Source: Vicinamibacteria bacterium
Lineage (GTDB): Bacteria > Acidobacteriota > Vicinamibacteria > Vicinamibacterales > CAVVIG01
Length of the DNA stretch: 64,000 nt
Reading direction: 5' to 3'
Assembly (NCBI GenBank): GCA_041485905.1
Contig: JBGPKK010000001.1
Span: forward strand, 38,141 to 102,140
Part shown: in pieces, positions 8,415 to 51,618 of the stretch
Position numbering within the stretch: the stretch's first letter is position 1
Layout: each line of letters starts with the position of its first letter
Made by a program: the position numbers and the translations under genes
The notes under the pieces: model-generated
Told to the model about the DNA's origin: nothing
The model's input: the letters and a program-made list of their open reading frames with translations, nothing else
Databases searched by the model: none

Positions 8415-8776
8415 CAGCGCGGGTCGCCGCTCCGCACGAACTTGTTCGGCGTGCCCGTGAGTGCGCCACCGTCTGCCGGTCGCCAGAGTGCGACGTCCTC
8501 GATGCGGCGAGCCAGCGCGAAATCCTTGTCGGTGATTCCACCGGCGCTGTGCGTCGCCAGCTTGACCGTCACGCGGCCCCACGTCACTGCCAGATCGGGA
8601 TGATGGTAGGCGGCCTCCGCGATGTAGCCGATGGCGTTGACGAGCATGAGCGTCGTCGGCCACCCGTCGGTCTTGTACACACGGCGAATCCACCCGTCCT
8701 CGAAGTACCACCCGGGCAACTCGCTCAGGCGCCGGGCGATCTGCGACTCGTCGTATGTTTTCTCTTTATCTGACAT
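8414..8776 (-). CDS. pterin-4a-carbinolamine dehydratase-like protein
   Basis: ORF track. LPGWYFEDGWIRRVYK...AEAAYHHPDLAVTWGRVTVKLATHSAGGITDKD is the PCD/DCoH signature. Confidence 0.85.
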   Translation of the reverse strand: MSDKEKTYDESQIARRLSELPGWYFEDGWIRRVYKTDGWPTTLMLVNAIGYIAEAAYHHPDLAVTWGRVTVKLATHSAGGITDKDFALARRIEDVALWRPADGGALTGTPNKFVRSGDPR

Positions 8777-10427: not shown

Positions 10428-10454
10428 TCCGTGTCCTCTGTGTCCTCCGTGGTG
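10428..10454. repeat. Short tandem repeat, period 9 (gtgtcctct gtgtcctcc gtggtg)
   Basis: Read directly. Lies just upstream of the likely mfnB start. Confidence 0.7.
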
Positions 10455-10469
10455 GAGAGTGTGATCGGC

Positions 10470-11177
10470 ATGCGATTGCTGGTGAGCGTGATGGACGCGG
10501 CGGAGGCGGGCGCGGCGCTCGAGGGTGGCGCGGACGTGATCGACGCGAAAGATCCGTTTGCCGGCGCGCTCGGCGCGGTGTCGCGCGACGTGCTGCGCGC
10601 CATTCACGCGGCTGTTGGTGGTCAACGCCTTATCACCGCTGCGCTGGGCGACGCGACCGACGAAGCGGCGATTGAGCGAGCCGCCCGCGAATTCACCGCC
10701 GACGCGGCGCTGGTGAAGGTGGGCTTCGCCGGAATCGCCACCACCGGACGTGTGGCGGCGCTCATTGCGGCTGCAGTGCGCGGCGCGAGGGCCGGAAGCC
10801 ACGCGAACGGTGGGGTCGTCGCCGTCGCGTACGCCGATGCGGACCGTGCGGACGGCCTGGCGCCTGCCCTGATCATGGAAGCCGCAGCGGTTGCCGGCGC
10901 CGCGGGTGTGTTGCTCGACACGGCGAACAAGGGCGGACCCGGTCTCTGCGATCTCATCGCACCGGCTGCGCTCGCCGCCTGGGTGTCGCGGGCGCACCAA
11001 GCCGGCTTGCAGGTCGCCCTCGCCGGTCGCTTGACGGCGGATGATCTCCCGCTCGTGCGCGATGCCGGCGCGGACATCGCCGGGGTCCGCGGCGCCGCGT
11101 GCAAGGGCGGCCGTACCGGCCGCGTGTCGGCCGACAAGGTCCGTCTGCTGCGGACGCTACTCCGATTTCAGGGCTGA
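10470..11177 (+). CDS. mfnB: (5-formylfuran-3-yl)methyl phosphate synthase (methanofuran biosynthesis)
   Basis: Start taken at MRLLVSVMD (Met14 of ORF 10431..11177). GGADVIDAKDP, KVGFAG, LLDTANKGG, ALAGRL and IAGVRGAAC line up with archaeal MfnB as I remember it. Confidence 0.8.
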   Translation: MRLLVSVMDAAEAGAALEGGADVIDAKDPFAGALGAVSRDVLRAIHAAVGGQRLITAALGDATDEAAIERAAREFTADAALVKVGFAGIATTGRVAALIAAAVRGARAGSHANGGVVAVAYADADRADGLAPALIMEAAAVAGAAGVLLDTANKGGPGLCDLIAPAALAAWVSRAHQAGLQVALAGRLTADDLPLVRDAGADIAGVRGAACKGGRTGRVSADKVRLLRTLLRFQG

Positions 11178-21589: not shown

Positions 21590-22041
21590 GCCTGCTCCTT
21601 TGCCGCCATCTTGATCGCGGCGCGAATCCGCTGGTAGGTGCCGCAGCGGCAGATGTTGCCCGCCATCGCGCGGTCGATGTCCTGGTCGCTCGGATTCGGC
21701 GTCCGCTGCAGCAGCGACGCCGCCTGCATGATCTGCCCCACCTGGCAGTAGCCGCACTGCGCGACGTTGAGGCTGGCCCAGGCCCGTTGGACCGGGTGCC
21801 GGCCGTCGGCGCTGAGGCCTTCAATCGTAATGACGCGCCTGTTCTGGATCGTGCGCATCGGCGTCTGGCACGACCTGACCGCCTGCCCGTCCAGATGCAC
21901 GGTGCACGCGCCGCACAATCCCGCGCCGCACCCGAACCGGGTTCCCGTCAATCGCGCTTCGTCGCGGAGATACCAGAGCAAAGGCATGTCCGGATCGCCG
22001 TCGAACGATCGGTCGGTTCCGTTGACTTTAAAATTCACCAT
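21586..22041 (-). CDS. [2Fe-2S]-binding small subunit of the Mo hydroxylase (IorA type)
   Basis: Start at MVNFKVNG (Met95 of ORF 21586..22323). [12 protein letters not shown] and [10 protein letters not shown]...NICRCGTY are the two 2Fe-2S motifs. Confidence 0.9.
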
Positions 22042-22066
22042 CGGTGGGGTCCTCGCTAGGCGCAGA

Positions 22067-23050
22067 TTATCGCATGAGCTTGTGCGTTCCACTCTCGAAG
22101 AGCGACGCGCGCAGCACGTCGGGATTGAGCCGCCCGGCGTGGAACGTCCGTCCGGTCGTCGCGCTGGTGAGCCACACCTCGGCGGGGCTGAACAGCATCG
22201 GGTCGATCTTATAGAAGTCGTTGTCGTAGCGCTTGAAGATGTCGTAGAACGGCGTCCCGTAATCAGCGGACGCGGACGCGGGCAGGCGTTCCGCAAGCTC
22301 GGCCAGCTCATCGTCCTGCGCACGAACCGTGTAGCGCGCCTGACCGCCGTACAAAATGCAGTCGTTCGTGCGGCCGATCGCGCGCACGTCGCTCCGCGCG
22401 GTCGGCGCGAGCGGCGCGGTGCCCATCGCGCTCACCACGCGGCGCACGTCGAAGCCGAGGGTATCCATCTTGTGCAGTCCCGTCTCGAGCACCCGCGCCA
22501 CGATCTGGACGCCGCCGGCCAGACTGGCGGTGGGAGCGACGGCGATGGTGAGCGCTCCGGACGCGACGCCCGCCTTTGCCGCCACCCACGCGGCGACTTC
22601 CTCGGTGGGCAACGTTCGCGCTTCCAGCACGAGCACTCCGTGGCTGGCATCCTCGGCGTATCCCAGTTTGCCAAACAGCTCTTTCTCGACTCGCGCTTTC
22701 GCGCGCAGCGGGCCCGAGCCCATCGCGAAGAACCCCTGGGGGTCAATCGCCCATCCGGCATACTGCGACGCCATGCACGATTCGGCCGGATGATCGGTCC
22801 ACACGTGCACACCGGGCCACGTCTCGCCGCCGATGGCGAGCGACCCAAACGCGACGTGCCCGAGACCGCCCATGCACAGCTCGGCCAGCCGACGCCCTGC
22901 GGCGAAGCCGCCGGGCACGTTAACGCCGGCGTCGATGACGCGCGCGCCGCTCGCGAGCGTGTGTACGGCGAGGCGCAGCTCGGTCGACTGCTCGATGCAG
23001 CGATCGGCCAACGCCCACGCGCGATGGTTCATCCCGAGATCGGTCGGCAT
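22067..23050 (-). CDS. mch: methenyl-tetrahydromethanopterin cyclohydrolase
   Basis: Start at [12 protein letters not shown] (Met88 of ORF 22067..23311), 327 aa. [15 protein letters not shown] and the overall length fit Mch as I remember it. Confidence 0.8.
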
Positions 23051-23152
23051 GTCATCTATTGTCAGGCGCCTGATTCTAACCTTCAACGAGCCATCTTCTC
23101 TTTGACATGCTCGTGCGCCTCGGCTAAAAGAAGGACCATAAGGAGCTCCCGC

Positions 23153-25084
23153 GTGAAAACGAAACTCATTCTTGTGGCCGCCGTCGCGTGCGGCTCGCTC
23201 AGTATTCTGACGACAGTCGGCACGGTGTATCCAGAGGCTGGAGCGCAGGCGGCCGCGAATCCACAAGCGCCCGCAGCGGGACAGCAACCTCCTCCGCCAG
23301 CCGGAGGGCAACGCGGAGGTGTGCCGGGCACCGAAAGCGGGTGGGCCACGTTTCAGACTCGCTGTTCAATCTGTCACGGCAATCCGACGGTCGAGCGCGC
23401 CCAATCGCCCGCAGCCATTCGTGACATGCCGCCGGAGCGAACCTACGACGCGCTCGTGTCCGGCTCGATGCAGGTGCAGAGTCAGGGTCTGAGCGATCAA
23501 CAGAAGCGTGCCGTGGCCGAGTTCATGAGCGGACGCCCGCTCGGGAGCGCGAAACAGGGCGACGCGCGGAACATGCCGAACAAGTGCGCCAGCAATCCGA
23601 CGCTGTCGGATCCCGCTCGAGGCGCCGCATGGAACGGGTGGGGCGCCGATCTGTCGAATACAAGGTTCCAGCCGGCGACGGCCGCGGGCCTGACAGCCGC
23701 CCAGGTCCCTCAGTTGAAGCTGAAGTGGGCCTTCGGCTATCCGACCGGCGTCTCTGCCAACGGCCAACCGACGATTGCGTCCGGACGCGTGTTTGTCGGC
23801 AGCGACAACGGGTTCGTCTATTCGCTGGACGCTGCGACCGGCTGTGTCTACTGGTCGTTCGAAAACGGATCGATCGTGCGGGGCGCTGTCACGATTGGAC
23901 CGGTCAGAGGTCGGGGCACCGCGCGGTATGCCGTGTACTTCGGCGACGGGAAGGCCAACATCTTCGCACTGGACGCACAAAACGGCAGACTGCTCTGGAA
24001 GACCAAAGCAGATCCCCACTTCATCGCGCGTATTACGGCGGGCACCAAACTGTATAACGGCAAGTTGTTCGTGCCTGTTTCCTCATCCGAGGAGTTCAGC
24101 AGCGGCACTCCCGACTATCCGTGCTGCACGTCCCGAGGCAGCGTCGTCGCGCTTGACGCGAACACCGGCAAGCAGGTGTGGAAAGCCTGGGTCGTTCCCG
24201 AGGAACCGCAGCCTTATAAGACGCAGCCCAACGGCGTGACCTTGTACAAGCCGGCCGGTGGAGCGGTCTGGAACACGCCCACCGTCGATCCGGTTCGACA
24301 GGCGATCTACTTCGGCACCGGCGACGCGACGACTGCGCCGTCTCCGAGAACGACCGACGCCATCATGGCGGTCGACATCAACACCGGAAGGCTGCTGTGG
24401 TCGTATCAGGCGACCGAAAGCGACGTCTTCATGGGTGGGTGCAACGGCGCGGTGCGCAGCGAGGCGTGCCCGAATCCGATGGGGCCCGATATGGACATCG
24501 GAAACTCTCCGATCCTGAAGACGTTGCCGAACGGCAAACGGGTGCTGCTCGCCGGAACCAAGAGCGCAGACGTGTTCGCCCTCGATCCCGACAATAACGG
24601 CGCGCTGCTGTATCGAATCAACGCGGCAGGAGCCGCGGTCGGGGCCGGGCGCGGCGGCCGGGGCTCGATCGTCTGGGGCGGCGCCGCCGACGATCAGCTC
24701 GCGTACTACGGACTTGGCGGGGCGGGGCTCGCGGCGGTCAGGCCCGCCACCGGAGAGCGCGTCTGGGTCTTTACTCCTCCAGCGCCGGCCGGCGGCGGCC
24801 GGGGCGCCTCGCTCGGCGCCGCGCCGACGGTCATCCCCGGCGTCGTCCTCCAGGGATCGTCCGATGGTAAGCTCTACGCGCTATCGGCGACTGACGGGAA
24901 GCTGCTCTGGGAATTCAACACCGCTCAGAATTTCGAGACGGTCAACAAGGTCCCAGCCCATGGCGGCGCGATCAGCACCTCGGGCGCCGTGGTGGCCGGA
25001 CGCATGGTGTTCGTCGGTTCCGGGTACGCGGTCGGCAGCGGCGCCTCGGGAGGCAACGTGCTGCTCGCGTTCGGGATCGAGTAG
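23153..25084 (+). CDS. Quinohemoprotein: N-terminal cytochrome c plus PQQ-dependent beta-propeller dehydrogenase (polyvinyl-alcohol-dehydrogenase-like architecture)
   Basis: In-frame GTG preceded by aaggag within ORF 21767..25084, whose upstream part is antisense to mch. Signal peptide VKTKLILVAAVACGS; heme motif CSICHG; WNGWGADLSNTRFQP...LKLKWAF and repeated beta-propeller W/G motifs. Confidence 0.8.
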   Translation: MKTKLILVAAVACGSLSILTTVGTVYPEAGAQAAANPQAPAAGQQPPPPAGGQRGGVPGTESGWATFQTRCSICHGNPTVERAQSPAAIRDMPPERTYDALVSGSMQVQSQGLSDQQKRAVAEFMSGRPLGSAKQGDARNMPNKCASNPTLSDPARGAAWNGWGADLSNTRFQPATAAGLTAAQVPQLKLKWAFGYPTGVSANGQPTIASGRVFVGSDNGFVYSLDAATGCVYWSFENGSIVRGAVTIGPVRGRGTARYAVYFGDGKANIFALDAQNGRLLWKTKADPHFIARITAGTKLYNGKLFVPVSSSEEFSSGTPDYPCCTSRGSVVALDANTGKQVWKAWVVPEEPQPYKTQPNGVTLYKPAGGAVWNTPTVDPVRQAIYFGTGDATTAPSPRTTDAIMAVDINTGRLLWSYQATESDVFMGGCNGAVRSEACPNPMGPDMDIGNSPILKTLPNGKRVLLAGTKSADVFALDPDNNGALLYRINAAGAAVGAGRGGRGSIVWGGAADDQLAYYGLGGAGLAAVRPATGERVWVFTPPAPAGGGRGASLGAAPTVIPGVVLQGSSDGKLYALSATDGKLLWEFNTAQNFETVNKVPAHGGAISTSGAVVAGRMVFVGSGYAVGSGASGGNVLLAFGIE

Positions 25085-35916: not shown

Positions 35917-36000
35917 TGGGGAAATTGGGAATTAAGAATTAGGAATTCAGAATTCAGAATTCGAGCCACGAATTCCTAATTTCGAATTCTGAATTCATAA
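35917..36000. repeat. A+T-rich palindromic heptamer array filling the whole fwdB-fwdA intergenic space
   Basis: gaattaa gaattag gaattca gaattca gaattcg agcc acgaatt cctaatt tcgaatt ctgaatt cataatt. gaattcagaattcga and tcgaattctgaattc are perfect inverted repeats. Contains several GAATTC cores. Confidence 0.9.
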
Positions 36001-37344
36001 TTACGCGATTGCCGCGCGGACGTGCGTCTCGGGCGACCAGGCAGGCTTCGCGGCCACCGCCTCGCGGATGCGCCGGACGACCTCTTCGTCGGTCGGATAC
36101 GGCGACTTGAGCGCCGGCCGAAGCGGCAGGGGTATTTCGTCCATGCGATACGCAGTCCCCGGCGCGCTGATACCTGTGACCGCCGTGGTGATGTGCACGC
36201 GGGACAGGCGGCTCGTGTGAGTCACCTTGGGATCCAGCACGATCGTGGGAATGCGAGCCAGGTGATCGATGCCCGGCTGCGGCATCGTCGCTCCCGGATC
36301 CGCGCCGAGGATGAGCGCGGCGTCGTTGTCGCCGCGGACGATCAGGTCCACGGTCGAGAACTCCCCCGGATTGAAACGGGGGTAGCCCCGACTCAAGCTC
36401 ACACCGAACGGGTAGCCGGTCGACCAGCGCAGGACCATGTCCGATCCGGTGACGTTGCCGTGCCCTCGCATCGGCATGCACACGAACTTGGTGAACGCGT
36501 TCAGCTCCGCGGCCAGCGAGAGCACGCCCGCCGAGTTCATGTGCTTTCCACGGGTCATCGAGAGCCCCATGCCGAAGAAGATCACGCCGAATTTTGCGCG
36601 CTTCATTCGGTTGACGAGGTCCTGGAGTTGATCGACCGAGAGTCCGGTTTCCGCCACGCTCTCGGCATTGACCCTCTGGTTCTTGACAAGCGCGCGCAAG
36701 GTGGTGAGAACCTCGAAGTCCTTGCCCGGCCGAATCTGCAGGAAGAGGTCCGCAGCCTTCACGCTGGGCGTTTCGCGGATGTCCACCAGGACCATGAAGC
36801 GTCCCTTGCGCCCTTCCGGCACGAACCTGCCCTTCTGGGTCAGCGTGTATTTGGTGAAGTGCCGCGGGTGGCATTCCGCCGGGTTGCCGCCCCAGTAGAT
36901 GATGAAGTCGGCCCGATTCTTCACTTCGCCGAGCGTGCATGTAATCTTGCCACCCAACTGGGCGGCTATCTCAGTGGGGCCGTGTCAAAGCGAGGTGTGG
37001 CTGTCGACCACACCCCCGATCAACTCAGCCAGTGCCACGGCTTCCCGCTGGGCCTCGCACGTGATGTTGCTGAGTCCGTACACCAGTGGCATGTTGGCGG
37101 CATACAGGTAGTCGGCCGCGGCTGCGACGGCCGCGTCGAGAGTGGCCGGCTTCCCGTCGATCAGCGCGTCTGGAAACAGACGCTCCGCCGTGTGGTGTTT
37201 GAACCACGACTCGCCGAGACTGCAGGCGTTCTTGGCCTTGACGATGCGATCGCCTTCGGTGTGCAACTCGATGTCGTCACAGACGCATCCGCAGAACGTG
37301 CACGTGGCGTTGGGCACGACGTTGCTCGCAACGTTGAGGGTCAT
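36001..37344 (-). CDS. fwdB: formylmethanofuran dehydrogenase subunit B with an in-frame TGA (probable selenocysteine) at 36985-36987
   Basis: ORFs 36985..37482 (from MTLNV, Met47) and 36001..36957 are in the same frame, separated only by TGA plus 9 sense codons: ...GGVVDSHTSL-TGA-HGPTEIAAQLGGKITC.... The N-terminus has CTFCGCVCDD...C (Fe-S-like). The TGA is codon 120 and is followed by His. Confidence 0.75.
36953..36978 (-). promoter_or_regulatory. Candidate bacterial SECIS-like hairpin downstream of the fwdB UGA
   Basis: mRNA reads UGA CACGGC CCCACUG AGAUAGCCGCC CAGUUGGG: a 7-bp stem with one bulged U and an 11-nt loop, starting 7 nt after UGA. Folded by eye only. Confidence 0.3.
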
Positions 37345-37362
37345 CGAATCTCCCACATCATT

Positions 37363-37386
37363 TCTTGGTCTCGCTCTTGGTCTCGC
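37363..37386. repeat. Tandem repeat, period 12 (tcttggtctcgc x2), upstream of the fwdB start
   Basis: Read directly. Lies 19-42 nt upstream of the fwdB ATG on the coding strand. Confidence 0.75.
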
Positions 37387-37417
37387 CCCGACCCTGACCG
37401 GGCGGGATGACGAACGT

Positions 37418-37576
37418 TCATCCAAGCTCCCGACCGGGAAAGCTGCCACGAATGCGGCGCGGCATGTACCGCCCGGCCTCAATCATCTCCCAGGCCGGGA
37501 CATGTTCCTGGGGCGCGGCTTCAGACACTTCCCGCAGGATCCAGGTTTTCTTCTGGTCGAGAAGAATGTCGTTCAC
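37418..37576 (-). CDS. Hypothetical 52-aa ORF translationally coupled to fwdD
   Basis: GTG overlaps the fwdD TGA (GTGA). Product VNDILLDQKKTWILREVSEAAPQEHVPAWEMIEAGRYMPRRIRGSFPGRELG. I recognise no family. Confidence 0.3.
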   Translation of the reverse strand: MNDILLDQKKTWILREVSEAAPQEHVPAWEMIEAGRYMPRRIRGSFPGRELG

Positions 37577-37911: not shown

Positions 37912-38079
37912 TGGATAACGGTCTGGAACTGTCAGATTTACGAAAGAAAACCATTGTAGCACGCAGCGCGCAGGCGGTTAATGGCGTCGCCGTGACGTCC
38001 ACACGGCCTGCGGTCGGCCAGAACGTCACTCTGCGCCATCGCCGGACGAGAAACGTGTATATTGCGCCCGGGGAACTGG

Positions 38080-38631
38080 ATGAAACGGACTGTCGGCGAC
38101 CGGACGATCTCCCACGTGGCCCGGTCGATCGTGATCGCCGCGGTGCTTGGCGTCAGCGCCGTATCGGCGCACCTTGCGCGCGCTCAGGATCAGCGGAGCG
38201 GCGACGCGCTCGAGGTGCTTCAGGTGCAGCCGAACTTTTACATGATCGGTCGCGCGGGCGGCAACATCGCCGTCCAAATCGGGCCCGATGGGGTCGTCCT
38301 CGTGGACTCGGGTTCGAGGGAGATGGCGGACGCGGTCGTGGCGGCGATAAAGAAGCTGACCGATCAGCCGATTCGCTACATCATCAACACCAATCCGGAT
38401 GCCGACCCCAGTGGAGGCTGTGCTCGGCGGCGCGGACACCATGTATCCGGAGTATCGAAAGAAACTGAAGGCGACCTACGTCGCGCCCGAGAAATGCGTC
38501 CGTTATTGCTGTGGATGGGGAGGAGGCGGGGGAAACCCCGCGCCGGGCCTGACGGGTTGCATCAGCGGCGGCGGGCCCCCATAAACAGGGTCCGCCCCCG
38601 CCAGTGCGTTTCTAGTCTCTCTTCAGCTTGA
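38080..38631 (+). pseudogene. MBL-fold hydrolase N-terminal fragment (degenerate, probably inactive)
   Basis: Signal peptide, then LQVQPNFYMIGRAGGNIAVQIGPDGVVLVDSG...IRYIINTNPDADPSGG. The expected THxHxDHxGG metal motif has lost its His residues, and the remaining about 70 codons are low-complexity. Confidence 0.45.
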
Positions 38632-39013
38632 AATCGGCCTTCGTCGATCCGTGGTTCCAGGTGCCGGTCAGCGTGCGGTTGTACGAGCCGATGTCCGCCA
38701 GCTTCCCGTCGGCGACGATCTTCACCAGTGCGCCTGATTTGTCCTTGGCATCGGCCTCGAGATGAAGCATCCATTTCGTGGAGTCGAGCGTCGCGACCTT
38801 GATGGCGACGGCATCGGGCCCTGGGTCGATCGTCCCGGTGATATTCTTGCCGTCCCAGTACATGACCACCGTGATCTGCGTGCGCTGCGTCGGCGTCGCG
38901 CCCCAGTCGCCGTACCACGTGCCGACCAGCGGGTGACCTTCCTGGGCCAGTGCCGACACTGAAAGCGCGACGACGGCCAACGCGCACGATAACCAGGCAG
39001 CTTTTCGTCTCAT
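38612..39013 (-). CDS. small secreted protein, unknown function
   Basis: Start at MRRKAAWLSCALAVVALSVSALA (Met12 of ORF 38612..39046). Confidence 0.6.
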   Translation of the reverse strand: MRRKAAWLSCALAVVALSVSALAQEGHPLVGTWYGDWGATPTQRTQITVVMYWDGKNITGTIDPGPDAVAIKVATLDSTKWMLHLEADAKDKSGALVKIVADGKLADIGSYNRTLTGTWNHGSTKADFKLKRD

Positions 39014-39035
39014 CGTTATCTCCAGGCCCCGAGCG

Positions 39036-39962
39036 CTAGGGAACAATCCGGCTGGTGCGATCGACCGATTTCTCGGAACCGATCATGAGCACCGGTGCGA
39101 AGTTATTGTCCTGGCAGACGTATTCAAACAGTTCCTGTCCTGGACTCCAGCGAAGCGTGAAGCCGGTATTCCAGGTCGCTGTGTACGCGCCGGGATCGTC
39201 GATGGTGATTTCGTATTTGATCACGTTCATGTTCAGGCGGGTGAATCGCTCGATGTAGTGCAGCTTCTCGGTGTGCGGCGATCCCTGGCGATCCATCCAG
39301 AACCGTTCGTTGAACCCGAAGTTGTCCACGACCAGCGTGTCCCCCTCCCAGTGGCCGATCGAGTGTCCGTAATAGCTCGGCACCAGATCCTTGGGATGCT
39401 CCCGTCCATCCATATAGATGATCCGGTAGGTGTGCGGGCCGCCGATGTCCATGATGTACATGCGCTTGAGCTCCGGCATGTCCACGAACTCGACGCCGTA
39501 CGGCGTGAGGAACTGGCGTGAGCCGCCGGAAGGCTTGCAGCGCGTATGCGGCTCGAACTGCGTGCCCTGCCGGTAGGCGTAAAGCGCGCGGGCCCACGGC
39601 TGGAACGGCACTTCGCTCAACTTCGGTTTCGGAGGTGCGCCGGGCGCTGCGGGACCGCCCGCAATCGCGGCGCGGCTCGGTGTGTCGGGATCGGCGAACG
39701 TGCCGCCGCCAGGCAACCAGACCCCGAGCTCGCCAGGAAGCGGACCGAAGATCGGTTTGCCGTCCGCCCCGCGCGGCGCCGGCAGAGCCGGAGCGGCCGG
39801 ACCGCCGCGGCCGCCGCCGCGCCCCGCCCCCTGTCCGCGAGCCGGAGCGGGAGCGGCGGGAGCCTGTGCCTGCGGCGCTGCCTGCGAAAATGACGAAGCA
39901 GCCGGCAGCGTGACAAGCGCCAGCCCCAGGCCCACAGACGCGACGATGAGACGCTTACGCAT
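39036..39962 (-). CDS. secreted protein, unknown function (domain X)
   Basis: ORF track. Signal peptide, Pro/Gly/Ala-rich linker, then CKPSGGSRQF...YRIIYMDGREHP...WEGDTLVVDNFGFNERFWMD..GSPHTEKLHYIERFTR...YEITIDDPGAYT. Paralogous to the C-terminal half of 40448..41563. Confidence 0.7.
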   Translation of the reverse strand: MRKRLIVASVGLGLALVTLPAASSFSQAAPQAQAPAAPAPARGQGAGRGGGRGGPAAPALPAPRGADGKPIFGPLPGELGVWLPGGGTFADPDTPSRAAIAGGPAAPGAPPKPKLSEVPFQPWARALYAYRQGTQFEPHTRCKPSGGSRQFLTPYGVEFVDMPELKRMYIMDIGGPHTYRIIYMDGREHPKDLVPSYYGHSIGHWEGDTLVVDNFGFNERFWMDRQGSPHTEKLHYIERFTRLNMNVIKYEITIDDPGAYTATWNTGFTLRWSPGQELFEYVCQDNNFAPVLMIGSEKSVDRTSRIVP

Positions 39963-40004: not shown

Positions 40005-40409
40005 TTAGGGTGTCTCGGTTTCGCTGGAGGCCGCGCCCATCCGCTGTCCCGTGGACGCCATGGTTACGGTCCTGGCGTTGCCGCGGTTGCTCAGGTTCCT
40101 AGCGGCCGTGCCCTCCACGATCACTTCGTCGCCCAGCTTCATCGTCGTGCGCGTCCATCCCCTGGTCTGGAGTCCGTGCGGCGGCCCCATCTCGAAGCCC
40201 CAGTTGGTGACGGTGCCGTCGTCGTTCTTGACGTTGAGATAGAACCACACGTGGGGATTGGTCCATTCGACCTTCGTCACATATCCCTGTTTCTTGACCA
40301 CCTTGGTATTGTCGAATTCCGCCGCAAAGGAGTGGTGTGCTTTGACCGGTTTGGCCGACAGCATCACACCCAAAGCGAGGGCCAGAAGACCAACCGTGCG
40401 TAATCTCAT
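40005..40409 (-). CDS. DUF6152-like secreted protein
   Basis: Start at MRLRTVGLLALALG (Met99 of ORF 40005..40703), preceded by ggagga. AHHSFAAEFD...VTKVEWTNPHVWFYL. Paralogous to the N-terminal third of 40448..41563. Confidence 0.7.
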   Translation of the reverse strand: MRLRTVGLLALALGVMLSAKPVKAHHSFAAEFDNTKVVKKQGYVTKVEWTNPHVWFYLNVKNDDGTVTNWGFEMGPPHGLQTRGWTRTTMKLGDEVIVEGTAARNLSNRGNARTVTMASTGQRMGAASSETETP

Positions 40410-40447
40410 TGGAAATCCTCCTCTTAACCGTGAACGAGAACGATACA

Positions 40448-41563
40448 TTATGGTCTGTTGTCCTGGCAAAAATACAGCGGAAGCTCTTCGCCGGCCATCC
40501 ACTGCAGGTTCCACCCGGTGGACCAGGTTCGCGTGTAGGCGCCGGGATCGTCGATGGTGACTTCGTACTTCAAGGTATTGGCATCGGTGCGCGTGAGCCG
40601 CTCGATCAGGTGCAGCTTCTCGGAGTGCGGCAGGCCGCCATTGGTAAACCAGAACTTTTCGTTGAAGCTGTTGGTGTCGACGACCAGCGTATCTTTCTCC
40701 CATTTGGCCACGGCGCGCCCGTAATACAGCGGGTTGTCTGCATCGCCCCGCAACTGGCCTTGTTGCTTGCGGCCGTCCGTATAGATGATGCGGTAGTTAT
40801 GATCGCCGCCTCCGACGAAGACGAAAATCCGCTTGCGATTCTGGTCCTCGACAAACTGCAGGCCCTCGGGCATCTGGAACTGGCGCGGGCCACCCGCAGG
40901 CTTGCAGAACAGGAACATCGGGTCGTCCTTCAGAAAATTGCGCTGCCGCAATTCGTAGAGGTCTCGAGCCCAGCGCTGAAAGGGTGCGACCTTGTCCACA
41001 TCCGTGATGTTGCGCAGGAGGCCGTAGGCGTCCATCGGAATTTTCGCGGCGTTCTCCACCATCACCGTGGAGCTCGGGTTCGCCCAATATCCTGTCTCGC
41101 CTGGCGCGGGACCGAGTCGCGGCTGGCCGTCCGGCCACCGAGGCGTGGGCCGAGCGGCACGTGACGCAGAAGACGCAGCGGCCGGCACGGTCAACAAGCT
41201 CTTGCCGGTCGTGGTCATCACCACGGACTTCGCCCACGCCTGGCGGCTTCCGTCTCTGGCGGCAATGCCGCGAACGGTGAGCGCGTCGCCAATCTTCAGC
41301 GAGTCGCGCGTCCAGCCGCCTTTGCGAAGCTCCACCGGACTTTCGAGCTCAATGGCCCAAATCGCAACGCCGCTGCCATCGGGGACGCCGATGAATAAGT
41401 GGGCGTGCGGATTGAGCCAATCGATCTTGCTGACAACCCCCTTCAGGGTCACCGCTTTGTTGTCGTCGAACTTGGCCGCAATCTCGTGGTGGGCGATCAC
41501 CGGCGCGGACGCCAGAAACAGGCCCAAACCGAGGGCCAAAAGGCCGCAGACACGATGCCTCAT
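40448..41563 (-). CDS. Fusion of a DUF6152-like domain and domain X, secreted
   Basis: Start at MRHRVCGLLALGLG (Met21). The N-terminus AHHEIAAKFD...VSKIDWLNPHAHLFI and the C-terminus CKPAGGPRQF...YRIIYTDGRKQQ...WEKDTLVVDTNSFNEKFWF..GLPHSEKLHLIERLTR...YEVTIDDPGAYT. Confidence 0.75.
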   Translation of the reverse strand: MRHRVCGLLALGLGLFLASAPVIAHHEIAAKFDDNKAVTLKGVVSKIDWLNPHAHLFIGVPDGSGVAIWAIELESPVELRKGGWTRDSLKIGDALTVRGIAARDGSRQAWAKSVVMTTTGKSLLTVPAAASSASRAARPTPRWPDGQPRLGPAPGETGYWANPSSTVMVENAAKIPMDAYGLLRNITDVDKVAPFQRWARDLYELRQRNFLKDDPMFLFCKPAGGPRQFQMPEGLQFVEDQNRKRIFVFVGGGDHNYRIIYTDGRKQQGQLRGDADNPLYYGRAVAKWEKDTLVVDTNSFNEKFWFTNGGLPHSEKLHLIERLTRTDANTLKYEVTIDDPGAYTRTWSTGWNLQWMAGEELPLYFCQDNRP

Positions 41564-41740
41564 CGATATTTCTCCCGTCGCGACTGGAAGGCGGCCCAGG
41601 ATCACCGCTGAAGAATACAACAAACCGGGGGCAAAAGTTTATCTTTGCGCGGCAAGGCGGTCCTGCAGCGCCCGCACCAGCGGCCCGGTGGCGGGCGGTC
41701 CGGCCGCCCACGGATCCGGGTACGTAGGATCCGCGGTCGG

Positions 41741-45738: not shown

Positions 45739-46218
45739 GTGAAAGTGCCCGTCGGCATCACCGTCAACGGCCGTCGCTATCAACGCGACGTCGAACCGCG
45801 TCAGCTCCTGGTGCATTTCATCCGCGACCTCGGTGGCGTCACGGGTACCAAGATCGGGTGCGACACCAGTCAGTGCGGTGCGTGCACGGTGCTGCTCGAC
45901 GGCGTGGCGATCAGGTCATGTACCTGTCTGGCCGTGCAGGTGGACGGTAGCGCCGTCACGACTATCGAAGGACTCGCACCCCCCGGCAAGCTGCACCCGC
46001 TCCAGGAGGCGTTCTGGAACAAGCACGGGTTACAGTGCGGCTTCTGCACGCCGGGCATGATCCTGGCGTCCCACGAGCTGCTTCGCCAGAATCCAACGCC
46101 GAGCGACGCGGAGATTCGGCACGGCCTGGAAGGCAACATGTGCCGGTGCACCGGCTACCAGAACATCGTGCGCGCGGTTCGAGAAGCCTCGATCACGATG
46201 GGAGGGAAACAGCCATGA
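45739..46218 (+). CDS. coxS: [2Fe-2S] small subunit of a CoxSLM-type molybdo-flavoenzyme
   Basis: GTG (Val38 of ORF 45628..46218) preceded by ggagg. CDTSQCGACTV and CGFCTPGMI...NMCRCTGY. Confidence 0.9.
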   Translation: MKVPVGITVNGRRYQRDVEPRQLLVHFIRDLGGVTGTKIGCDTSQCGACTVLLDGVAIRSCTCLAVQVDGSAVTTIEGLAPPGKLHPLQEAFWNKHGLQCGFCTPGMILASHELLRQNPTPSDAEIRHGLEGNMCRCTGYQNIVRAVREASITMGGKQP

Positions 46219-48590
46219 GCTCCCGAATTTTTGGCTCAGGCATCCGGCGGCGGGAAGATCCGCGGCTGATTACCGGGACCGCGTTGTACACCGACGATCT
46301 GACGCTGCCGGCGATGGTCCACGCGGCCATGCTGCGCAGCCCGCACGCCTACGCGCGCATCACGAGGATTGACGTCAGCCGCGCGAAAGCGGCGCCGGGC
46401 GTGCTGGCCGCCTACACGGCCGCGGACATCGACGCGCTGAAGCCGGTGCCGTGCGCGTGGCTGCTGCCGAACGCGAACCTCAAGATCGCCGGCTACCCGT
46501 GCATGGCCAGGGACACCGTCCGCTACGTCGGCGACATCGTGGCGGTCGTCGTCGCCGAGACCGCGTATCAGGCGTACGACGCGCTCGATCTCCTCGAGGT
46601 GGACTACGACGCGTTGCCCGCAGTCACCGATCCAAAGGCAGCGGCCCAGCCCGGCGCGCCGCAGCTGCACGCCGACATACCAAACAACGAGGCGTTTCAC
46701 TGGGTGGTGGCTGGCGGCGATATCGACGCCGCCTTCAAGAACGCTGAAGTCATCGTCAAGGAGCGCATCGTTCAGCAACGGCTCATTCCCAACGCGATGG
46801 AGCCACGGGCCGCGCTCGCGCAGTGGAGCGGCGCGTCGGGAGAGCTGACGCTCTGGAACACGACCCAGAACCCCCACATCCTCCGCTACCTCACCTCGGT
46901 CGTCACCGGCGTGCCGGAAGACAAGCTGCGTGTGGTCGCCCCTGAAGTCGGCGGCGGGTTTGGCAGCAAGATCGCGGCGTATCCGGCGGACTTCATCACC
47001 TGTTTCTGCGCGATGACCTTGAATCGGCCGGTCAAGTGGAACGAAACGCGCAGCGAGAACTATCAGGCGACAACGCACGGCCGCGATCACATCCAGGAGG
47101 TCGAGCTCGCCGCGAAGAAGGACGGGACGATCCTCGGACTGCGCGCCGAGATCTGGGCGGGCATGGGCGCGTATCTGTCGACGGCGGCGCCCGGCATCCC
47201 GACGATTCTGCACGGCCTGATGCTGTCGGGCGTGTACAACCTGCCCGCCGTCAAGGAACACGTCCACGGCGTATATACCAACGCCACGCCGGTCGAGGCG
47301 TATCGCGGCGCCGGACGACCCGAAGCGACGTTCATGATCGAACGCATGATGGACAAGCTGGCGAGCACGATCGGGATGGATCCGGTTGACCTGCGGTTGA
47401 AGAACATGATCCCGCGCTTCGAGAACGGGCACACGGTCATCACCGGGCTCACCTACGACAGCGGCGACTACCCGGCGGGATTGAAGAAGATCCTGGATCA
47501 CGTGAAGTACAAGGAGCTGCGCAAGGAGCAGGCGGACGCGCGCAAGAAGGGACGCTACATCGGCATCGGCGTGGCGTCCTACGTCGAGATCTGCGGACTC
47601 GGGCCGTCACAGGTCGCCGGCGCGATCGGCTTCCAGGGAGGTCTGTGGGAAAGCGCCATCGTGCGCGTCCATCCCACAGGGAAGGTTCACGTCTTCATCG
47701 GCGCGTCGCCGCACGGTCAAGGCGAAGAGACGACGTTCGCCCAGCTCGTCGCCAGCGAGATCGGCGTCGATACCAACGACGTCAAGGTGTTTCACGGCGA
47801 CACCGACGTCACCCCGATGGGATGGGGCACCTACGGCAGCCGGACGACCGCGGTCGGCGGTGCGGCCCTGATCCTCGCGACGCGCAAGGTCAAGGAGAAG
47901 GCCAAGGTCATTGCCGCGCACCTGCTCGAAGCCTCGGTCGAGGACATGGACTACGCCGACGGCAGGTTCTTCGTGAAGGGATCGCCCGACAAGGCGAAGA
48001 CGATTCAGGAGGTCGCGCTGATGGCGCACCTGTCGTGGAACATGCCGAAGGACGTCGAGTCGGGACTCGAGGCGTCGATGTTCTACGACCCGCCCAACTT
48101 TACGTATCCGTTCGGATCGCACGTCGCGGTGGTCGAAGTCGATCCGGAGACGGGACAGATCGATCTCAAGCGGTACGTCGCGCTCGACGACTGCGGCCCG
48201 CAGATCAATCCGGTCATCGTCGAAGGCCAGGTGCACGGCGGCGTCGTGCAGGGTCTGGGTCAGGCGCTCTGGGAAGAAGCGGTGTACGACGAGAACGGGC
48301 AGCTGGTCACGGGGTCGATGCTCGACTACGCCCTGCCCCGCGCCGACACGCTCTGCGACATCGAGGTGATTTCGACGGTCACGCCGTCGCCGCATCATCC
48401 GCTTGGACTCAAAGGCGTTGGCGAAGCCGGCACGATCGCGTCGACCGTGACGATGTACAGCGCCGTGATGGACGGGCTCGCGCCCCTGGGCGTCCAGCCG
48501 CTTCGGATGCCGATGACGGCCGAACGCGTGTGGCGGGCCATTCAAGAGGGCAAAGCGCAAAGGGCAGAGGGCAAAGCGCAGAAGGCATAG
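46215..48590 (+). CDS. coxL: Molybdopterin large subunit, form-II CoxL-like (AYRGAGR active-site loop)
   Basis: Start at MSSRIFGSGIRRRED (Met61 of ORF 46035..48590), ATGA overlap with coxS. EVGGGFGSK; VEAYRGAGRPEA rather than the AYRCSFR of form I. The last about 14 residues are encoded by the heptamer array. Confidence 0.85.
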   Translation: MSSRIFGSGIRRREDPRLITGTALYTDDLTLPAMVHAAMLRSPHAYARITRIDVSRAKAAPGVLAAYTAADIDALKPVPCAWLLPNANLKIAGYPCMARDTVRYVGDIVAVVVAETAYQAYDALDLLEVDYDALPAVTDPKAAAQPGAPQLHADIPNNEAFHWVVAGGDIDAAFKNAEVIVKERIVQQRLIPNAMEPRAALAQWSGASGELTLWNTTQNPHILRYLTSVVTGVPEDKLRVVAPEVGGGFGSKIAAYPADFITCFCAMTLNRPVKWNETRSENYQATTHGRDHIQEVELAAKKDGTILGLRAEIWAGMGAYLSTAAPGIPTILHGLMLSGVYNLPAVKEHVHGVYTNATPVEAYRGAGRPEATFMIERMMDKLASTIGMDPVDLRLKNMIPRFENGHTVITGLTYDSGDYPAGLKKILDHVKYKELRKEQADARKKGRYIGIGVASYVEICGLGPSQVAGAIGFQGGLWESAIVRVHPTGKVHVFIGASPHGQGEETTFAQLVASEIGVDTNDVKVFHGDTDVTPMGWGTYGSRTTAVGGAALILATRKVKEKAKVIAAHLLEASVEDMDYADGRFFVKGSPDKAKTIQEVALMAHLSWNMPKDVESGLEASMFYDPPNFTYPFGSHVAVVEVDPETGQIDLKRYVALDDCGPQINPVIVEGQVHGGVVQGLGQALWEEAVYDENGQLVTGSMLDYALPRADTLCDIEVISTVTPSPHHPLGLKGVGEAGTIASTVTMYSAVMDGLAPLGVQPLRMPMTAERVWRAIQEGKAQRAEGKAQKA

Positions 48591-48650
48591 GGCAAAGCGC
48601 AGAGGGCATAGGGCAAAGGGGTTTTTGCCCTTTGCCTTTTGCCTTTTGCA
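48548..48650. repeat. Heptamer array pair: about 10 x GGGCAAA-type units, then 3-4 x TTGCCCT-type units (hairpin)
   Basis: gggcaaa gcgcaaa gggcaga gggcaaa gcgcaga aggcata gggcaaa gcgcaga gggcata gggcaaa ggggttt ttgccct ttgcctt ttgcctt ttgcact. Confidence 0.9.
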
Positions 48651-48666
48651 CTACGAGGTTCTTCTT

Positions 48667-49533
48667 ATGTATGCATCAGAGTTCGACTACTACCGCGCCG
48701 GCACCGTGGCGGAAGCCGGCGAGCTTCTGCGGAAATATCCTGGCGCCAAACTCCTGGCCGGCGGCCACAGCCTGATTCCGCTGCTGAAACTGCGTCTCGC
48801 CGCGCCACCCGCGCTCATCGACATCGGCCGCATCGTGGAGCTCAAAGGCGTGACGGTCACAGGGGGAACCGTCCGCATCGGCGCGCTCACCACGCATGCC
48901 GATCTGGCGGCCTCCAACGCGCTAGGCGAGAGTTGCCCTGCGCTCGCCGAGGCGGCGCAACAGGTGGGCGATCCGGCGGTGCGAAACCGGGGGACCATCG
49001 GCGGCAACGTCGCTCACGCCGATCCGGCGTCGGACCTGCCGACGGTGCTCACCGCGCTCGGCGCACGGTTCACCATCGCCGGGCCGCGCGGAACGAGGAC
49101 CGTCGACGCCGGCGGTTTTTTCACCGGCATGATGACCACCGCGCTCGACGATCAGGATCTGCTCACGGCGATCGAAATTCCCGCGAAGCAGAAGGGCCAG
49201 GGCATGGCGTACGTGAAATTCTCGCATCCGGCGTCGCGCTACGCCGTCATCGGCGTCGCCGCGAGCGTCACGGTGACCGGCGGTACGTGTACTGCCGCAG
49301 GCGTGGCGATCGGCGGGCTCGTCCCCACGGCCACGCGCGCCCGGTCGGTTGAGAAGGCGCTCGTCGGTCAGCCGCTGTCGGCCGACGCCATTGCGAAGGC
49401 GGCCCATCAGATCGCGCAGGACTTGGGAGCCGACATCCTCGGCGATCTCTACGCATCGGCCGATTACCGCAAGGCGGTCGCGCCGGTGTGGGTGAAGCGA
49501 GCGCTCACCGCGGCGGCGGATCGCGCACGATAA
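48667..49533 (+). CDS. coxM: FAD-binding medium subunit
   Basis: Start at MYASEFDYYRAG (Met15 of ORF 48625..49533). LLAGGHSLIP and RNRGTIGGN. Confidence 0.9.
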   Translation: MYASEFDYYRAGTVAEAGELLRKYPGAKLLAGGHSLIPLLKLRLAAPPALIDIGRIVELKGVTVTGGTVRIGALTTHADLAASNALGESCPALAEAAQQVGDPAVRNRGTIGGNVAHADPASDLPTVLTALGARFTIAGPRGTRTVDAGGFFTGMMTTALDDQDLLTAIEIPAKQKGQGMAYVKFSHPASRYAVIGVAASVTVTGGTCTAAGVAIGGLVPTATRARSVEKALVGQPLSADAIAKAAHQIAQDLGADILGDLYASADYRKAVAPVWVKRALTAAADRAR

Positions 49534-49536
49534 AAG

Positions 49537-50436
49537 GTGGTTCCCGCATCCATCGACGAGCTGCAGGCGCTTCTCGAGCGACAGCTCTACATCGCCGATC
49601 GCGGCCTCGCGACCTCCATCTATCTCGCGCTGAAGCTGCAGCGTCCGCTGCTGCTCGAGGGCGAGGCCGGTGTCGGCAAGACCGAAGTCGCCAAAGTGCT
49701 GGCTGCTGCCTTCGACACCGACCTGATCCGCCTCCAATGTTACGAAGGCCTCGACATCAGCCATGCGGTGTACGAATGGAACTACGCGCGGCAGTTGCTG
49801 GAGATCCGGTTGATGGAAGCATCCGGCGCAGTGGATCGCCAGAAGGCTGCGAGCGAGCTGTTCGGCGAAGAATTTCTCATCAGGCGGCCGCTGCTTCAGG
49901 CGCTGTCGAACCGCGGGACGCGGCCGGTTCTCCTGATCGACGAGCTGGATCGCGCTGACGAAGAGTTCGAGGGCTATTTGCTCGAGCTGCTCAGCGACTT
50001 TCAAATCACGATTCCCGAGATTGGCACGATCCGCGCCGGCACTCCGCCGATTGTCATCATCACGTCGAACCGGACCCGCGAGCTGCACGACGCGCTGAAG
50101 CGGCGCTGCCTGTATTTCTGGATCGATTACCCGGACGCTCAGAAAGAGCTTCGCATCGTCACGACGAAACTGCCGGGCGCGCCCGCGCGGCTGGCTGAGC
50201 AGGTGACCGCATTCGTCCAGGAGCTCCGCGCGATGGATCTTTACAAAGCCGCCGGCGTCTCCGAGACACTGGACTGGGTCGCCGCGCTCGTCGCGCTCGA
50301 TCGCCAGGAGCTCGACGCCGACGCGATCGAGCAGACGCTCGGCATCCTGCTCAAGAACCAGGAAGACATTCAGGCGATGCGCGGCGGGCGGATCTCGGAG
50401 CTGCTCAATCGCACTCGATCTGCTTCGCTCGGATAA
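49537..50436 (+). CDS. coxD: MoxR-family AAA+ ATPase (CoxD-like)
   Basis: ORF track. LLLEGEAGVGKT Walker A, VLLIDELDRA Walker B. Confidence 0.85.
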   Translation: MVPASIDELQALLERQLYIADRGLATSIYLALKLQRPLLLEGEAGVGKTEVAKVLAAAFDTDLIRLQCYEGLDISHAVYEWNYARQLLEIRLMEASGAVDRQKAASELFGEEFLIRRPLLQALSNRGTRPVLLIDELDRADEEFEGYLLELLSDFQITIPEIGTIRAGTPPIVIITSNRTRELHDALKRRCLYFWIDYPDAQKELRIVTTKLPGAPARLAEQVTAFVQELRAMDLYKAAGVSETLDWVAALVALDRQELDADAIEQTLGILLKNQEDIQAMRGGRISELLNRTRSASLG

Positions 50437-50626
50437 AGATCATCGGGTCTTTGCACACCAGCGTTTCGTTGTCCTTCGTCACCTCCCATCCTTTCAGGAT
50501 TCCGTTGCGAAGGACAAGGGCCGGCTCGTCAGCCAACAAAAATACACTTCCCATTCCGAGCGCGACACCTACCACGATTCCGACACACAGAACCCGAATT
50601 GACGGCATGCGTCGGAACAACTGCAA
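50405..50626 (-). CDS. Hypothetical small single-TM protein
   Basis: ORF track. Hydrophobic VLCVGIVVGVALGMGSVFLL. A+T-richer than its surroundings. Overlaps the coxD 3' end by 32 nt, so uncertain. Confidence 0.4.
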   Translation of the reverse strand: MQLFRRMPSIRVLCVGIVVGVALGMGSVFLLADEPALVLRNGILKGWEVTKDNETLVCKDPMIFIRAKQIECD

Positions 50627-50732
50627 ATGACGCGCCGGTTGAGATTGTTGGGGTTTTGAAAGCCAGCAGCCTGGAAGGGGGCAATTCTTGTCCCGGTGCC
50701 GATGGCGTCTAATGGCAGATTCTGCGTCTCTG

Positions 50733-51461
50733 TCATGGGGCCGGCGGCTTACAGATCGCGCATGGTCCGTGTTTCTTGATCGCTTCGGCTAACGCCATCG
50801 GAGTCGCGTGGCTGCGGGCCAGGAGTGGGCAATCAGCACGATGATATTTCGTTCCAGTTCTTGTGACATAAACGGTCACCTGTTGTGAAGTGGATTGTGA
50901 GCGATTGTTGGACCGGGCGGCCGGCGGAACCGTTTTCTTGTCTGGGGCCCAGAGTCCAAGGTTCCTTTCGCGAGCCTCACGTTCGAGCTTCCTGAACTGC
51001 TCCAGGTATTTGAACGGATACCTGGTGTAAGCGAACCCGTAACCCTGTCGAATGATCTCGGCGTTTACGAACGTGCCGTCCAATAGATAGATGTACGCCA
51101 ACGTTCGGTTGTACTTGTCTCTTCGATTCCAGTCGTATTCAACTCGCACGCGCTTGCCGTCGACAAGCCGGTGCATGAAGGCGCTCGCTTCCCGACCGAA
51201 TCGCTGGATCGGACGTCGCGGATCAACCGTTTCAGGTGTGTCGATGCCAATCAGGCGGACCTTGCCAATCCGTTCAAGCACAATCGTGTCGCCATCAACG
51301 ACTCGAGTCACACGGTACGATTCCGAGGTGGTCTGGGAAGACGCGACCAGCGTCGAGAAGATCAGTGCAAAGACCGTGTACAGCGGGACCAGCACTTTGG
51401 CCGCAGGCCGGCGCGGAGCCGAGCCCTCAGAGGTCAGCGCGAGAGTCAACGGTTTGTCCAT
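50733..51461 (-). CDS. Secreted/membrane-anchored thermonuclease (SNase)-family nuclease with a C-terminal Cys/His-rich tail
   Basis: Start at MDKPLTL (Met12 of ORF 50733..51494). TM/signal VLVPLYTVFALIFSTLVA; VVDGDTIVL...VRLIGIDTPE...GREA...DKYNRTLAYIYL...NAEIIRQGYG...E..AR....GLW is the SNase core. The tail is YHRADCP...HGPCAICKP. Confidence 0.8.
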   Translation of the reverse strand: MDKPLTLALTSEGSAPRRPAAKVLVPLYTVFALIFSTLVASSQTTSESYRVTRVVDGDTIVLERIGKVRLIGIDTPETVDPRRPIQRFGREASAFMHRLVDGKRVRVEYDWNRRDKYNRTLAYIYLLDGTFVNAEIIRQGYGFAYTRYPFKYLEQFRKLEREARERNLGLWAPDKKTVPPAARSNNRSQSTSQQVTVYVTRTGTKYHRADCPLLARSHATPMALAEAIKKHGPCAICKPPAP

Positions 51462-51583
51462 CGTCAGAATGAGCGCAGGCGAGCCGTGGCGCAATGGAAA
51501 AATTCTTCAGGCGCCCCCGCTTTAAATCGATCATTGCTTGAGTCCGGGACTCTGTACGGACCGTCTCTCTAGGCAAGCCATGC

Positions 51584-51618
51584 ATTCCTGATTCATAATT
51601 CCTAATTGTAAATTGCCC
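51584..51618. repeat. A+T-rich heptamer half-array (attcctg attcata attccta attgtaa attgccc) running into the coxE start codon
   Basis: Read directly. Same flavour as the arm next to the fwdA start. Confidence 0.85.

Follow-up and report, generated by a model that had tools for sequence, protein, structure and literature searches.

An in-frame UGA at the metal-ligand position of a bacterial fwdB gene: a predicted selenocysteine-dependent formylmethanofuran dehydrogenase subunit in an acidobacterial genome

Bacterial pathways of tetrahydromethanopterin (H4MPT)-linked formaldehyde oxidation are commonly depicted with the non-redox Fhc complex, from which formate is released, as their last member. 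In Archaea, FwdB, the catalytic subunit of formylmethanofuran dehydrogenase (Fwd), is known in a cysteine form in Methanothermobacter wolfeii (5T5I chain B) and in selenocysteine (Sec) forms in Methanopyrus kandleri (FwuB) and Methanococcus maripaludis (9SFI chain Q). Here we describe a fwdB gene in a stretch of 64,000 nucleotides from a Vicinamibacteria bacterium of the Acidobacteriota (contig JBGPKK010000001.1, positions 38,141 to 102,140; hereafter the window, in whose numbering all its positions are given), in which an in-frame TGA stands where the metal ligand is expected. A prediction made earlier from the letters of the window alone (the original prediction) held that the gene encodes a Sec-dependent, redox-competent subunit B, and supposed that this had not been described for bacterial H4MPT islands. 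The latter point has to be corrected: a Sec fmdB was already predicted by Kim et al. (2016, PLoS One 11:e0151883; PMC4807772), who described, for Rhodopirellula sp. P2 and two unclassified bacteria, an fmdB "encoded as a selenoprotein" within an operon fmdD-fmdB-fmdA-fmdC, the Sec gene being annotated as two genes in IMG and no selenocysteine insertion sequence (SECIS) being found by bSECISearch (their S9 Table). Later, 149 bacterial FwdB homologues were recorded by Wells et al. (2023; PMC10100899), who inferred a transfer from Archaea; the Wells et al. paper of 2020 noted an absence of bacterial representatives, and the selenoproteome reviews of 2022 and 2026 represent FwdB by a methanogen sequence and consider it for methanogens only.

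The fwdB gene begins at an ATG with GGGAG in front, and its only interruption over 447 sense codons is the TGA at codon 120, counted from MTLNV (...VVDSHTSL-stop-HGPTEIAAQLGGKITC... in translation; ...DSHTSL-TGA-HGPTEIAAQLGGK... at the nucleotide level). The translation carries no other lesion. Two open reading frames (ORFs), 36985..37482 and 36001..36957, had been proposed to be halves of one frame, and retranslation of 37344..36001 bears out both their coordinates and this description: the gap between them consists of the TGA plus nine sense codons, and the TTG at which the downstream ORF appears to start is Leu130 of fwdB. As TGA is the ordinary stop of 22 of the 52 predicted genes in the window, fwdD included, an alternative genetic code was rejected; the code is standard and the fwdB position therefore requires a specific recoding. 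A scan of the window for further pairs of ORFs joined by a TGA and carrying a coding signal returned antisense shadows only.

With a Cys placed at the stop, the product scores 493.7 bits against TIGR03129 (cutoff 327.8; residues 12-430 against profile positions 1-421), a model that spans both FwdB and FhcB and does not discriminate between them. The 447-residue product matches archaeal FwdB over its full length, its closest structures being chains 9sfi_Q, 8rja_B and 5t5i_B (E-values of 2e-111 to 3e-105, 355-376 bits), and gives only a weak match to the methylotroph FhcB chain 6s6y_B (54 bits, E-value 8e-14, residues 61-156 only). As the original prediction had it, the TGA falls at the catalytic Cys/Sec ligand: its column is Cys118 of the M. 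wolfeii enzyme (5t5i_B), with His121 in the place of His119, and in 9sfi_Q, from the M. maripaludis complex (described in PMC13518236), it holds a non-standard residue X followed by His. Arg293, in the motif PMRGH, corresponds to Arg288 in the PMRGH of 5t5i_B (residues counted from the alignment), and C15-x2-C18-x3-C22...C41 align with the [4Fe-4S] cysteines of the same chain (motif CPFCGTLCDD...NAC). These correspondences are fixed by sequence match to solved FwdB chains, at E-values of about 1e-105. According to Hemmann et al. (2019; PMC6926001), FhcB has a Ser for Cys118, has lost His119, Arg288, the [4Fe-4S] domain and FwdD, and binds no pterin, a list that agrees with the earlier statement that FhcB lacks the metal ligand. 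All of the FwdB features lost in FhcB are kept here, namely the Sec/Cys-His pair, the equivalent of Arg288, the four-cysteine [4Fe-4S] motif and a separate fwdD. Judged by these features, the window protein is a redox-type FwdB and not an FhcB.

Conservation was assessed among 81 relatives, comprising 80 loci from a scan of one genome per species (FwdB 79-93% identical) and one further locus, L001; counts over 82 sequences below include that of the window. The relatives are mostly metagenome-assembled genomes (MAGs) labelled as Acidobacteriota (Vicinamibacteria, gp6), Planctomycetota (Gemmataceae, Pirellulales) and Rokubacteria, with a few others. Codon 120 is TGA in 80 of the 81 and TGC in the remaining one (L016), never TAA or TAG. 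From the TGA to the TTG, nine codons encode the active-site motif HGPTEIAAQ and vary almost solely at synonymous sites; in codons 121-126 (HGPTEI), two to four synonymous codons are used at each position and the amino acids are invariant, save for Leu126 in two sequences. It follows that the stretch up to the supposed restart is translated and under purifying selection. Both halves of fwdB are likewise under strong purifying selection, at 79-93% identity, and the orthologues are very unlikely to be genuinely split or decayed genes, an outcome that would have spoken against the original prediction. Public databases present them otherwise: 103 of the best 120 protein matches are fragments of 306-321 residues that start just past the same position, and L001 has separate gene calls of 115 and 318 residues for the two halves. 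Such fragments are what gene callers give when they all halt at this TGA. Because the best matches break at the same place and the TGA is kept in 80 of 81 loci, the conserved TGA is neither a product of chance nor a sequencing error. In one NCBI protein (P0001, 417 residues), about 30 residues around the TGA are left out, an artefact of annotation. Distant bacterial homologues with a Cys at the ligand position were also found (P0002, P0007, P0069). Other distant, full-length bacterial homologues have Ser (P0003, P0004) or Thr (P0006, P0017) there and keep His-Gly-Pro or His-Gly-Ala after it. The level of 79-93% FwdB identity holds across Acidobacteriota, Planctomycetota, Rokubacteria, Gemmatimonadota and Binatia and reaches single bins of Actinomycetota, Alcaligenaceae and Deltaproteobacteria, which suggests that the operon has spread horizontally, that some sequences were mis-binned, or both.

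Immediately downstream of the UGA, within the region 36900-36990 that the original prediction had singled out for a SECIS, a hairpin is predicted that starts 18 nt past the UGA and has its loop 25 nt past it (Table 1). Published criteria for bacterial elements are a loop of 3-9 nt, a stem of 4-16 bp, a G within the initial two loop positions followed by G or U, a distance of 16-37 nt from UGA to loop and a minimum free energy of -7.5 kcal/mol or lower (PMC13188914). With its AGUU loop, 7 bp, 25 nt and -13.1 kcal/mol, the fwdB hairpin lies within all of these limits. The RNAalifold consensus of 20 diverse sequences is the identical hairpin. Moreover, codons 127-132, which form it, show the lowest synonymous entropy among 85 conserved six-codon windows of the gene (0.24; median 0.65). 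Leu130 is TTG in all 82 sequences, a codon that makes up 13% of the Leu codons elsewhere in the gene; CTG at this position would turn the GU of the loop into GC. Similarly, GCG, which would set a G opposite a G, occurs in none of the 164 cases at codons 127 and 128 and accounts for 43% of the Ala codons elsewhere in the gene. In the 5' arm, C-to-U opposite G is the sole kind of change. Among the 82 sequences, which are related but well mixed at flanking synonymous sites, all seven pairs are kept in 71 and six of the seven in the other 11; with synonymous codons picked at random according to the codon usage of the gene, full pairing would be expected in only 8%.

Four of the relatives carry genes for Sec decoding just upstream of the operon. 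L026 and L045 have one tRNA-Sec gene each, and L003 has two, no more than 10 kb upstream of fwdB (ARAGORN and Rfam); together they are four of just nine tRNA genes across all 81 loci. SelB and SelA adjoin the tRNA-Sec in the same three loci (Pfam), and SelD was found in L003 (partial, at the locus end), L008, L026 and L045, with SelA in L008 as well (tblastn), where selA and selD are the only sel genes. The FwdB of L003, an Acidobacteriota MAG, is 91% identical to that of the window, and the sequence from the UGA to the hairpin is the same in both. The two tRNA-Sec genes of L003, at 3795-3888 and 8466-8561 of that locus on the plus strand, are 4.7 kb apart and stand between selA/selB and the fwd operon (ARAGORN, Rfam RF01852). 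The selD genes of L003 (8-346, minus) and L008 (6718-7677, minus) have an in-frame TGA at the position of Cys17 in the E. coli protein, in the context AAG-TGA-A[AS]KLGP, and are probably selenoprotein genes too, to judge from this alignment; in the Planctomycetota loci L026 and L045, SelD has a Cys at that position. Downstream of the selD TGA, the sequence CUGUUGCA-GGUGC-UGCACAG resembles by eye the SECIS of E. coli fdhF, but RNAfold favours another fold.

We put a probability of about 0.88 on the reading that fwdB is one intact gene, that UGA120 is decoded as Sec, and that a FwdDBAC enzyme of the archaeal type has this product as its catalytic subunit. The Sec-dependent, redox-competent subunit B of the original prediction is thereby supported at the same level by the residues, the conservation of the TGA, the hairpin and the sel linkage in relatives. 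A number of points weigh against this reading. As a single sequence, the 60 nt after the UGA fold no better than shuffled ones (z = -0.13); thermodynamic significance was dropped as evidence for the hairpin on account of this value, and comparative evidence was used. RNAalifold detected no double compensatory changes in the hairpin among the 20 sequences, the amino-acid sequence permitting wobble changes only, and the structural support comes from synonymous-site constraint together with wobble-compatible changes among related sequences. Neither selA, selB, selD nor tRNA-Sec was found in the window by ARAGORN, Rfam and tblastn (the last with SelA and SelB from relatives and with an E. coli SelD, used as a probe only), and the Sec competence of this organism is presumed from that of its relatives. 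Since sel genes are not within 10 kb of the operon in most relatives either, their absence from the window says little; the window holds no tRNA gene of any kind (ARAGORN, Rfam). No FwdF/FwdG-type polyferredoxin or ferredoxin gene is conserved near the operon in a regular-expression scan of the 81 loci for ferredoxin motifs, an ORF with CxxCxxCxxxCP occurring within 8 kb in just two Rokubacteria loci, about 5 kb away. The missing polyferredoxin sets the complex apart from the archaeal ones; subunit B itself is not defined by such a partner. Finally, the literature searched contained no biochemical study of any bacterial Fwd.

Gene integrity, the ligand position, the hairpin with its constraint, the operon content and the sel linkage in relatives are observed; that selenium is inserted, which metal is bound, in which direction the enzyme works and what accepts the electrons are inferences. 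SelB carrying Sec-tRNA(Sec) would bind the hairpin, leading to the insertion of Sec at UGA120. Sec120 would ligate Mo or W in the bis-pterin cofactor, His121 and Arg293 would complete the formate/CO2 site, and FwdD would cap the cofactor. Ftr would make formyl-methanofuran from formyl-H4MPT, FwdA would hydrolyse it to formate, and FwdBD would oxidise that formate to CO2, as against its release as formate by the Fhc complex of methylotrophs, the electrons leaving through the N-terminal [4Fe-4S] cluster of FwdB. Because the island includes fae, a methylene-H4MPT dehydrogenase, ftr and cofactor genes, this role as the last step of H4MPT-linked formaldehyde oxidation is the most likely one, oxidation to CO2 being deduced from that context.

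A Sec enzyme of this kind might instead work in the reductive direction, from CO2 to formyl-methanofuran, and feed one-carbon (C1) assimilation as in methanogens. Archaeal Fwd can run both ways and is reductive in its physiological role (PMC6926001; PMC13518236), and every catalytic feature is conserved here; nevertheless, the presence of fae, typical of the oxidative route, and of a pyrroloquinoline quinone (PQQ) dehydrogenase, the lack in the 81 loci of any operon-linked module (polyferredoxin, Hdr or hydrogenase) that could supply electrons of very low potential, and the fact that the relatives are mostly MAGs of soil and freshwater Acidobacteriota and Planctomycetota make a reductive role improbable. 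Rather less probable still is that the gene is a Sec gene in the relatives, while this particular genome has lost Sec decoding or, at a low level, reads through the UGA with near-cognate insertion of Cys or Trp, so that the enzyme is made poorly or not at all. The 64 kb without sel genes or tRNA-Sec would agree with such a loss, and a switch from Sec to Cys does occur in the clade, in L016. However, linkage within 10 kb is the exception among the relatives as well, the TGA, its flanks and the hairpin of the window are identical to the commonest state in sel-carrying relatives, L003 included, and an unreadable UGA would be expected to bring rapid decay of a gene that in fact has no other lesion. 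That the TGA is a true stop in a split or decaying gene, leaving a 119-residue Fe-S fragment and a separately started 318-residue fragment, or nothing functional, is hardly credible, for although public gene callers report 306-321-residue products, L001 has its two halves called apart and the window lacks Sec machinery, the TGA persists across several phyla with a Cys codon as sole exception, the HGPTEIAAQ codons and both halves are under purifying selection, sel genes adjoin the operon in relatives, and neither fragment alone would hold the Sec/Cys-His catalytic pair.

The operon to which this predicted Sec subunit belongs has the order fwdD, small ORF, fwdB, fwdA, fwdC, ftr, all on the minus strand (Table 1). 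A fwdD gene was found in 75 of the 81 loci. The small ORF, of 30-50 residues, is present at the same site in all 81 (tblastn); its N-terminal part is variable and its C-terminal part carries the motif WExIExGRYMPRRIRGSFPGRELG. It has no significant match in Pfam, NCBIfam or the PDB, and may be an extra subunit or an assembly factor of the bacterial Fwd. Between fwdB and fwdA, the spacer 35917-36000 has 31% GC in a window of 66% GC and is made up of GAATTCW heptamers that form an inverted repeat. The window has six matches to GAATTCTGAATTC, with one mismatch allowed, and every one of them is in this spacer, where 0.03 are expected. Other Acidobacteriota loci have, in the same spacer, different repeat hairpins with a period of 7-8 nt (GGTAATY in L007, CACGAAGG in L041, GGTGCTYG in L008 and CCGTGTCCT in L001).

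Table 1. Features of the window discussed in the text
Feature	Coordinates	Strand	Description and basis
fwdB	37344..36001	minus	Full frame, 447 codons, UGA120 predicted as Sec; translation, TIGR03129, archaeal FwdB structures
fwdB product	36001..37344	minus	Predicted Mo/W-bis-pterin, [4Fe-4S] catalytic subunit B of formylmethanofuran dehydrogenase
In-frame UGA, codon 120	36987-36985	minus	Predicted selenocysteine ligand of Mo/W; catalytic His121 next
Predicted bacterial SECIS hairpin	36966-36949	minus	GCCGCCC-AGUU-GGGUGGC; 7 bp, loop 36959-36956; codons 127-132 (AAQLGG)
fwdD	37962-37573	minus	Molybdopterin-dinucleotide-binding "fourth domain" cap; PF01568 47 bits, NF042908 E 1.4e-23, 5t5i_D E 3.5e-20
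Small ORF, 52 codons	37576-37418	minus	Between fwdD and fwdB; GTG start overlaps fwdD stop (GTGA)
fwdA	35916-34291	minus	Amidohydrolase making/hydrolysing formyl-methanofuran; TIGR03121 683.7 bits (cutoff 392.75), Pfam Amidohydro_3
fwdC	34229-33414	minus	Beta-helix subunit; TIGR03122 267.4 bits, Pfam GXGXG
ftr (fhcD-type)	32981-31827	minus	Formylmethanofuran:H4MPT formyltransferase; Pfam FTR, FTR_C; TIGR03119 427 bits
fae	45570-45058	minus	Upstream step of H4MPT-linked formaldehyde oxidation; Pfam Fae 231.9 bits
Methylene-H4MPT dehydrogenase (mtd)	45029-44088	minus	Upstream H4MPT step; Pfam Mpt_N 112.6 bits
mfnB	10431..11177	plus	4-(hydroxymethyl)-2-furancarboxaldehyde phosphate (4-HFC-P) synthase, methanofuran biosynthesis; Pfam 4HFCP_synth 193 bits
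PQQ dehydrogenase-cytochrome c fusion	21767-25084		1105 aa

The remainder of the island extends on both sides of the operon. At about 3-19 kb of the window, mfnB stands among genes for the synthesis of the H4MPT and methanofuran cofactors and genes related to pterin and para-aminobenzoate. Two adjacent DUF6152 proteins (40005-41623, minus) and several ORFs without a family match (38026-39962) are located between cofactor-synthesis genes and fwdD and are poorly conserved among the related loci. Beside the H4MPT island, at 46035-52773 on the plus strand, is a molybdenum hydroxylase cluster of the CoxL/CoxM type with CoxD (AAA) and CoxE (VWA) accessory genes, and a second MoCoBD protein is encoded at 19325-21757 on the minus strand.

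Several consequences would follow if the Sec reading of fwdB is right. Public gene calls split the gene or, as in P0001, splice out the TGA, so that an intact catalytic subunit goes unseen in metabolic reconstructions of many MAGs from the Acidobacteriota and Planctomycetota. With a redox-competent Sec-Fwd, formyl-methanofuran would go straight to CO2 and low-potential electrons would be delivered; the enzyme would also tie C1 oxidation in common soil bacteria to the supply of selenium and of Mo or W. The conserved hairpin offers a testable bacterial SECIS for the FwdB family, one that an earlier search had missed (PMC4807772). We also entertain, tentatively and with clearly less than even confidence, the idea of a distinct bacterial Fwd that is Sec-dependent, lacks the polyferredoxin and includes the conserved, hitherto unnoticed micro-protein as a further subunit or an assembly factor. 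Its spread would have reached several phyla that are abundant in soil and freshwater (Acidobacteriota, Planctomycetota, Rokubacteria and others), at times along with a selD-selB-selA-selC cluster. Were this so, the oxidation of formaldehyde by these bacteria would carry a hidden need for selenium and Mo/W, and it would be FwdB that keeps the Sec trait in place among them. The system would be of greater interest should the complex in bacteria, with its micro-protein and electron acceptor, prove functionally different from the archaeal enzyme.

Among known systems, E. coli FdhF and the bacterial Sec formate dehydrogenases share with the predicted protein the U-H-G-P context and the architecture of a Mo/W-bis(molybdopterin guanine dinucleotide) site with a [4Fe-4S] cluster. 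Their homology is distant, however (TIGR01591, 62 bits); the fourth domain of FdhF is here a separate polypeptide, FwdD, and formate would come from FwdA and not from solution. The hairpin differs from that of fdhF in being a simple 7-bp stem with a 4-nt loop, and stands about 7 nt farther from the UGA. Both would be decoded in the SelB manner through a hairpin that closely follows the UGA and has G-U in its apical loop (criteria in PMC13188914). FhcB of Methylorubrum extorquens (6S6Y chain B) belongs to the same superfamily and to TIGR03129, acts in the bacterial H4MPT pathway and has corresponding neighbours (FhcA/FwdA, FhcC/FwdC, FhcD/Ftr). The likeness to archaeal FwdB goes further, covering full-length homology, the Sec/Cys-His column, the Arg288 equivalent, the [4Fe-4S] cysteines, and FwdD, FwdA and FwdC alongside. 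Unlike the archaeal genes, whose SECIS elements are mostly found in the 3' untranslated region (PMC9312934; PMC13188914), the present one has a bacterial host and would need an in-frame SECIS right after the UGA; the archaeal complexes contain the FwdF/FwdG polyferredoxin, which is not linked to the operon in any systematic way among the 81 loci, and here there is in addition a conserved ORF between fwdD and fwdB as well as an oxidative context given by fae, methylene-H4MPT dehydrogenase and ftr. Another close system is the fmdB of Rhodopirellula sp. P2 and of a Lake Washington fosmid, with its bacterial fmdDBAC operon, in-frame UGA at the Cys/Sec position and split annotation; as compared by description only, it differs in that the earlier study covered a handful of sequences and detected no SECIS, and in that the present gene comes from another lineage, the Acidobacteriota. 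To the fmdB of Kim et al. (2016) the present analysis adds the conserved hairpin, the UGA in nearly all relatives and the sel linkage in some of them. What is new is thus the breadth of the trait, mostly in Acidobacteriota and Planctomycetota, a SECIS hairpin under constraint, its linkage to sel genes, and an explicit test of FwdB against FhcB feature by feature.

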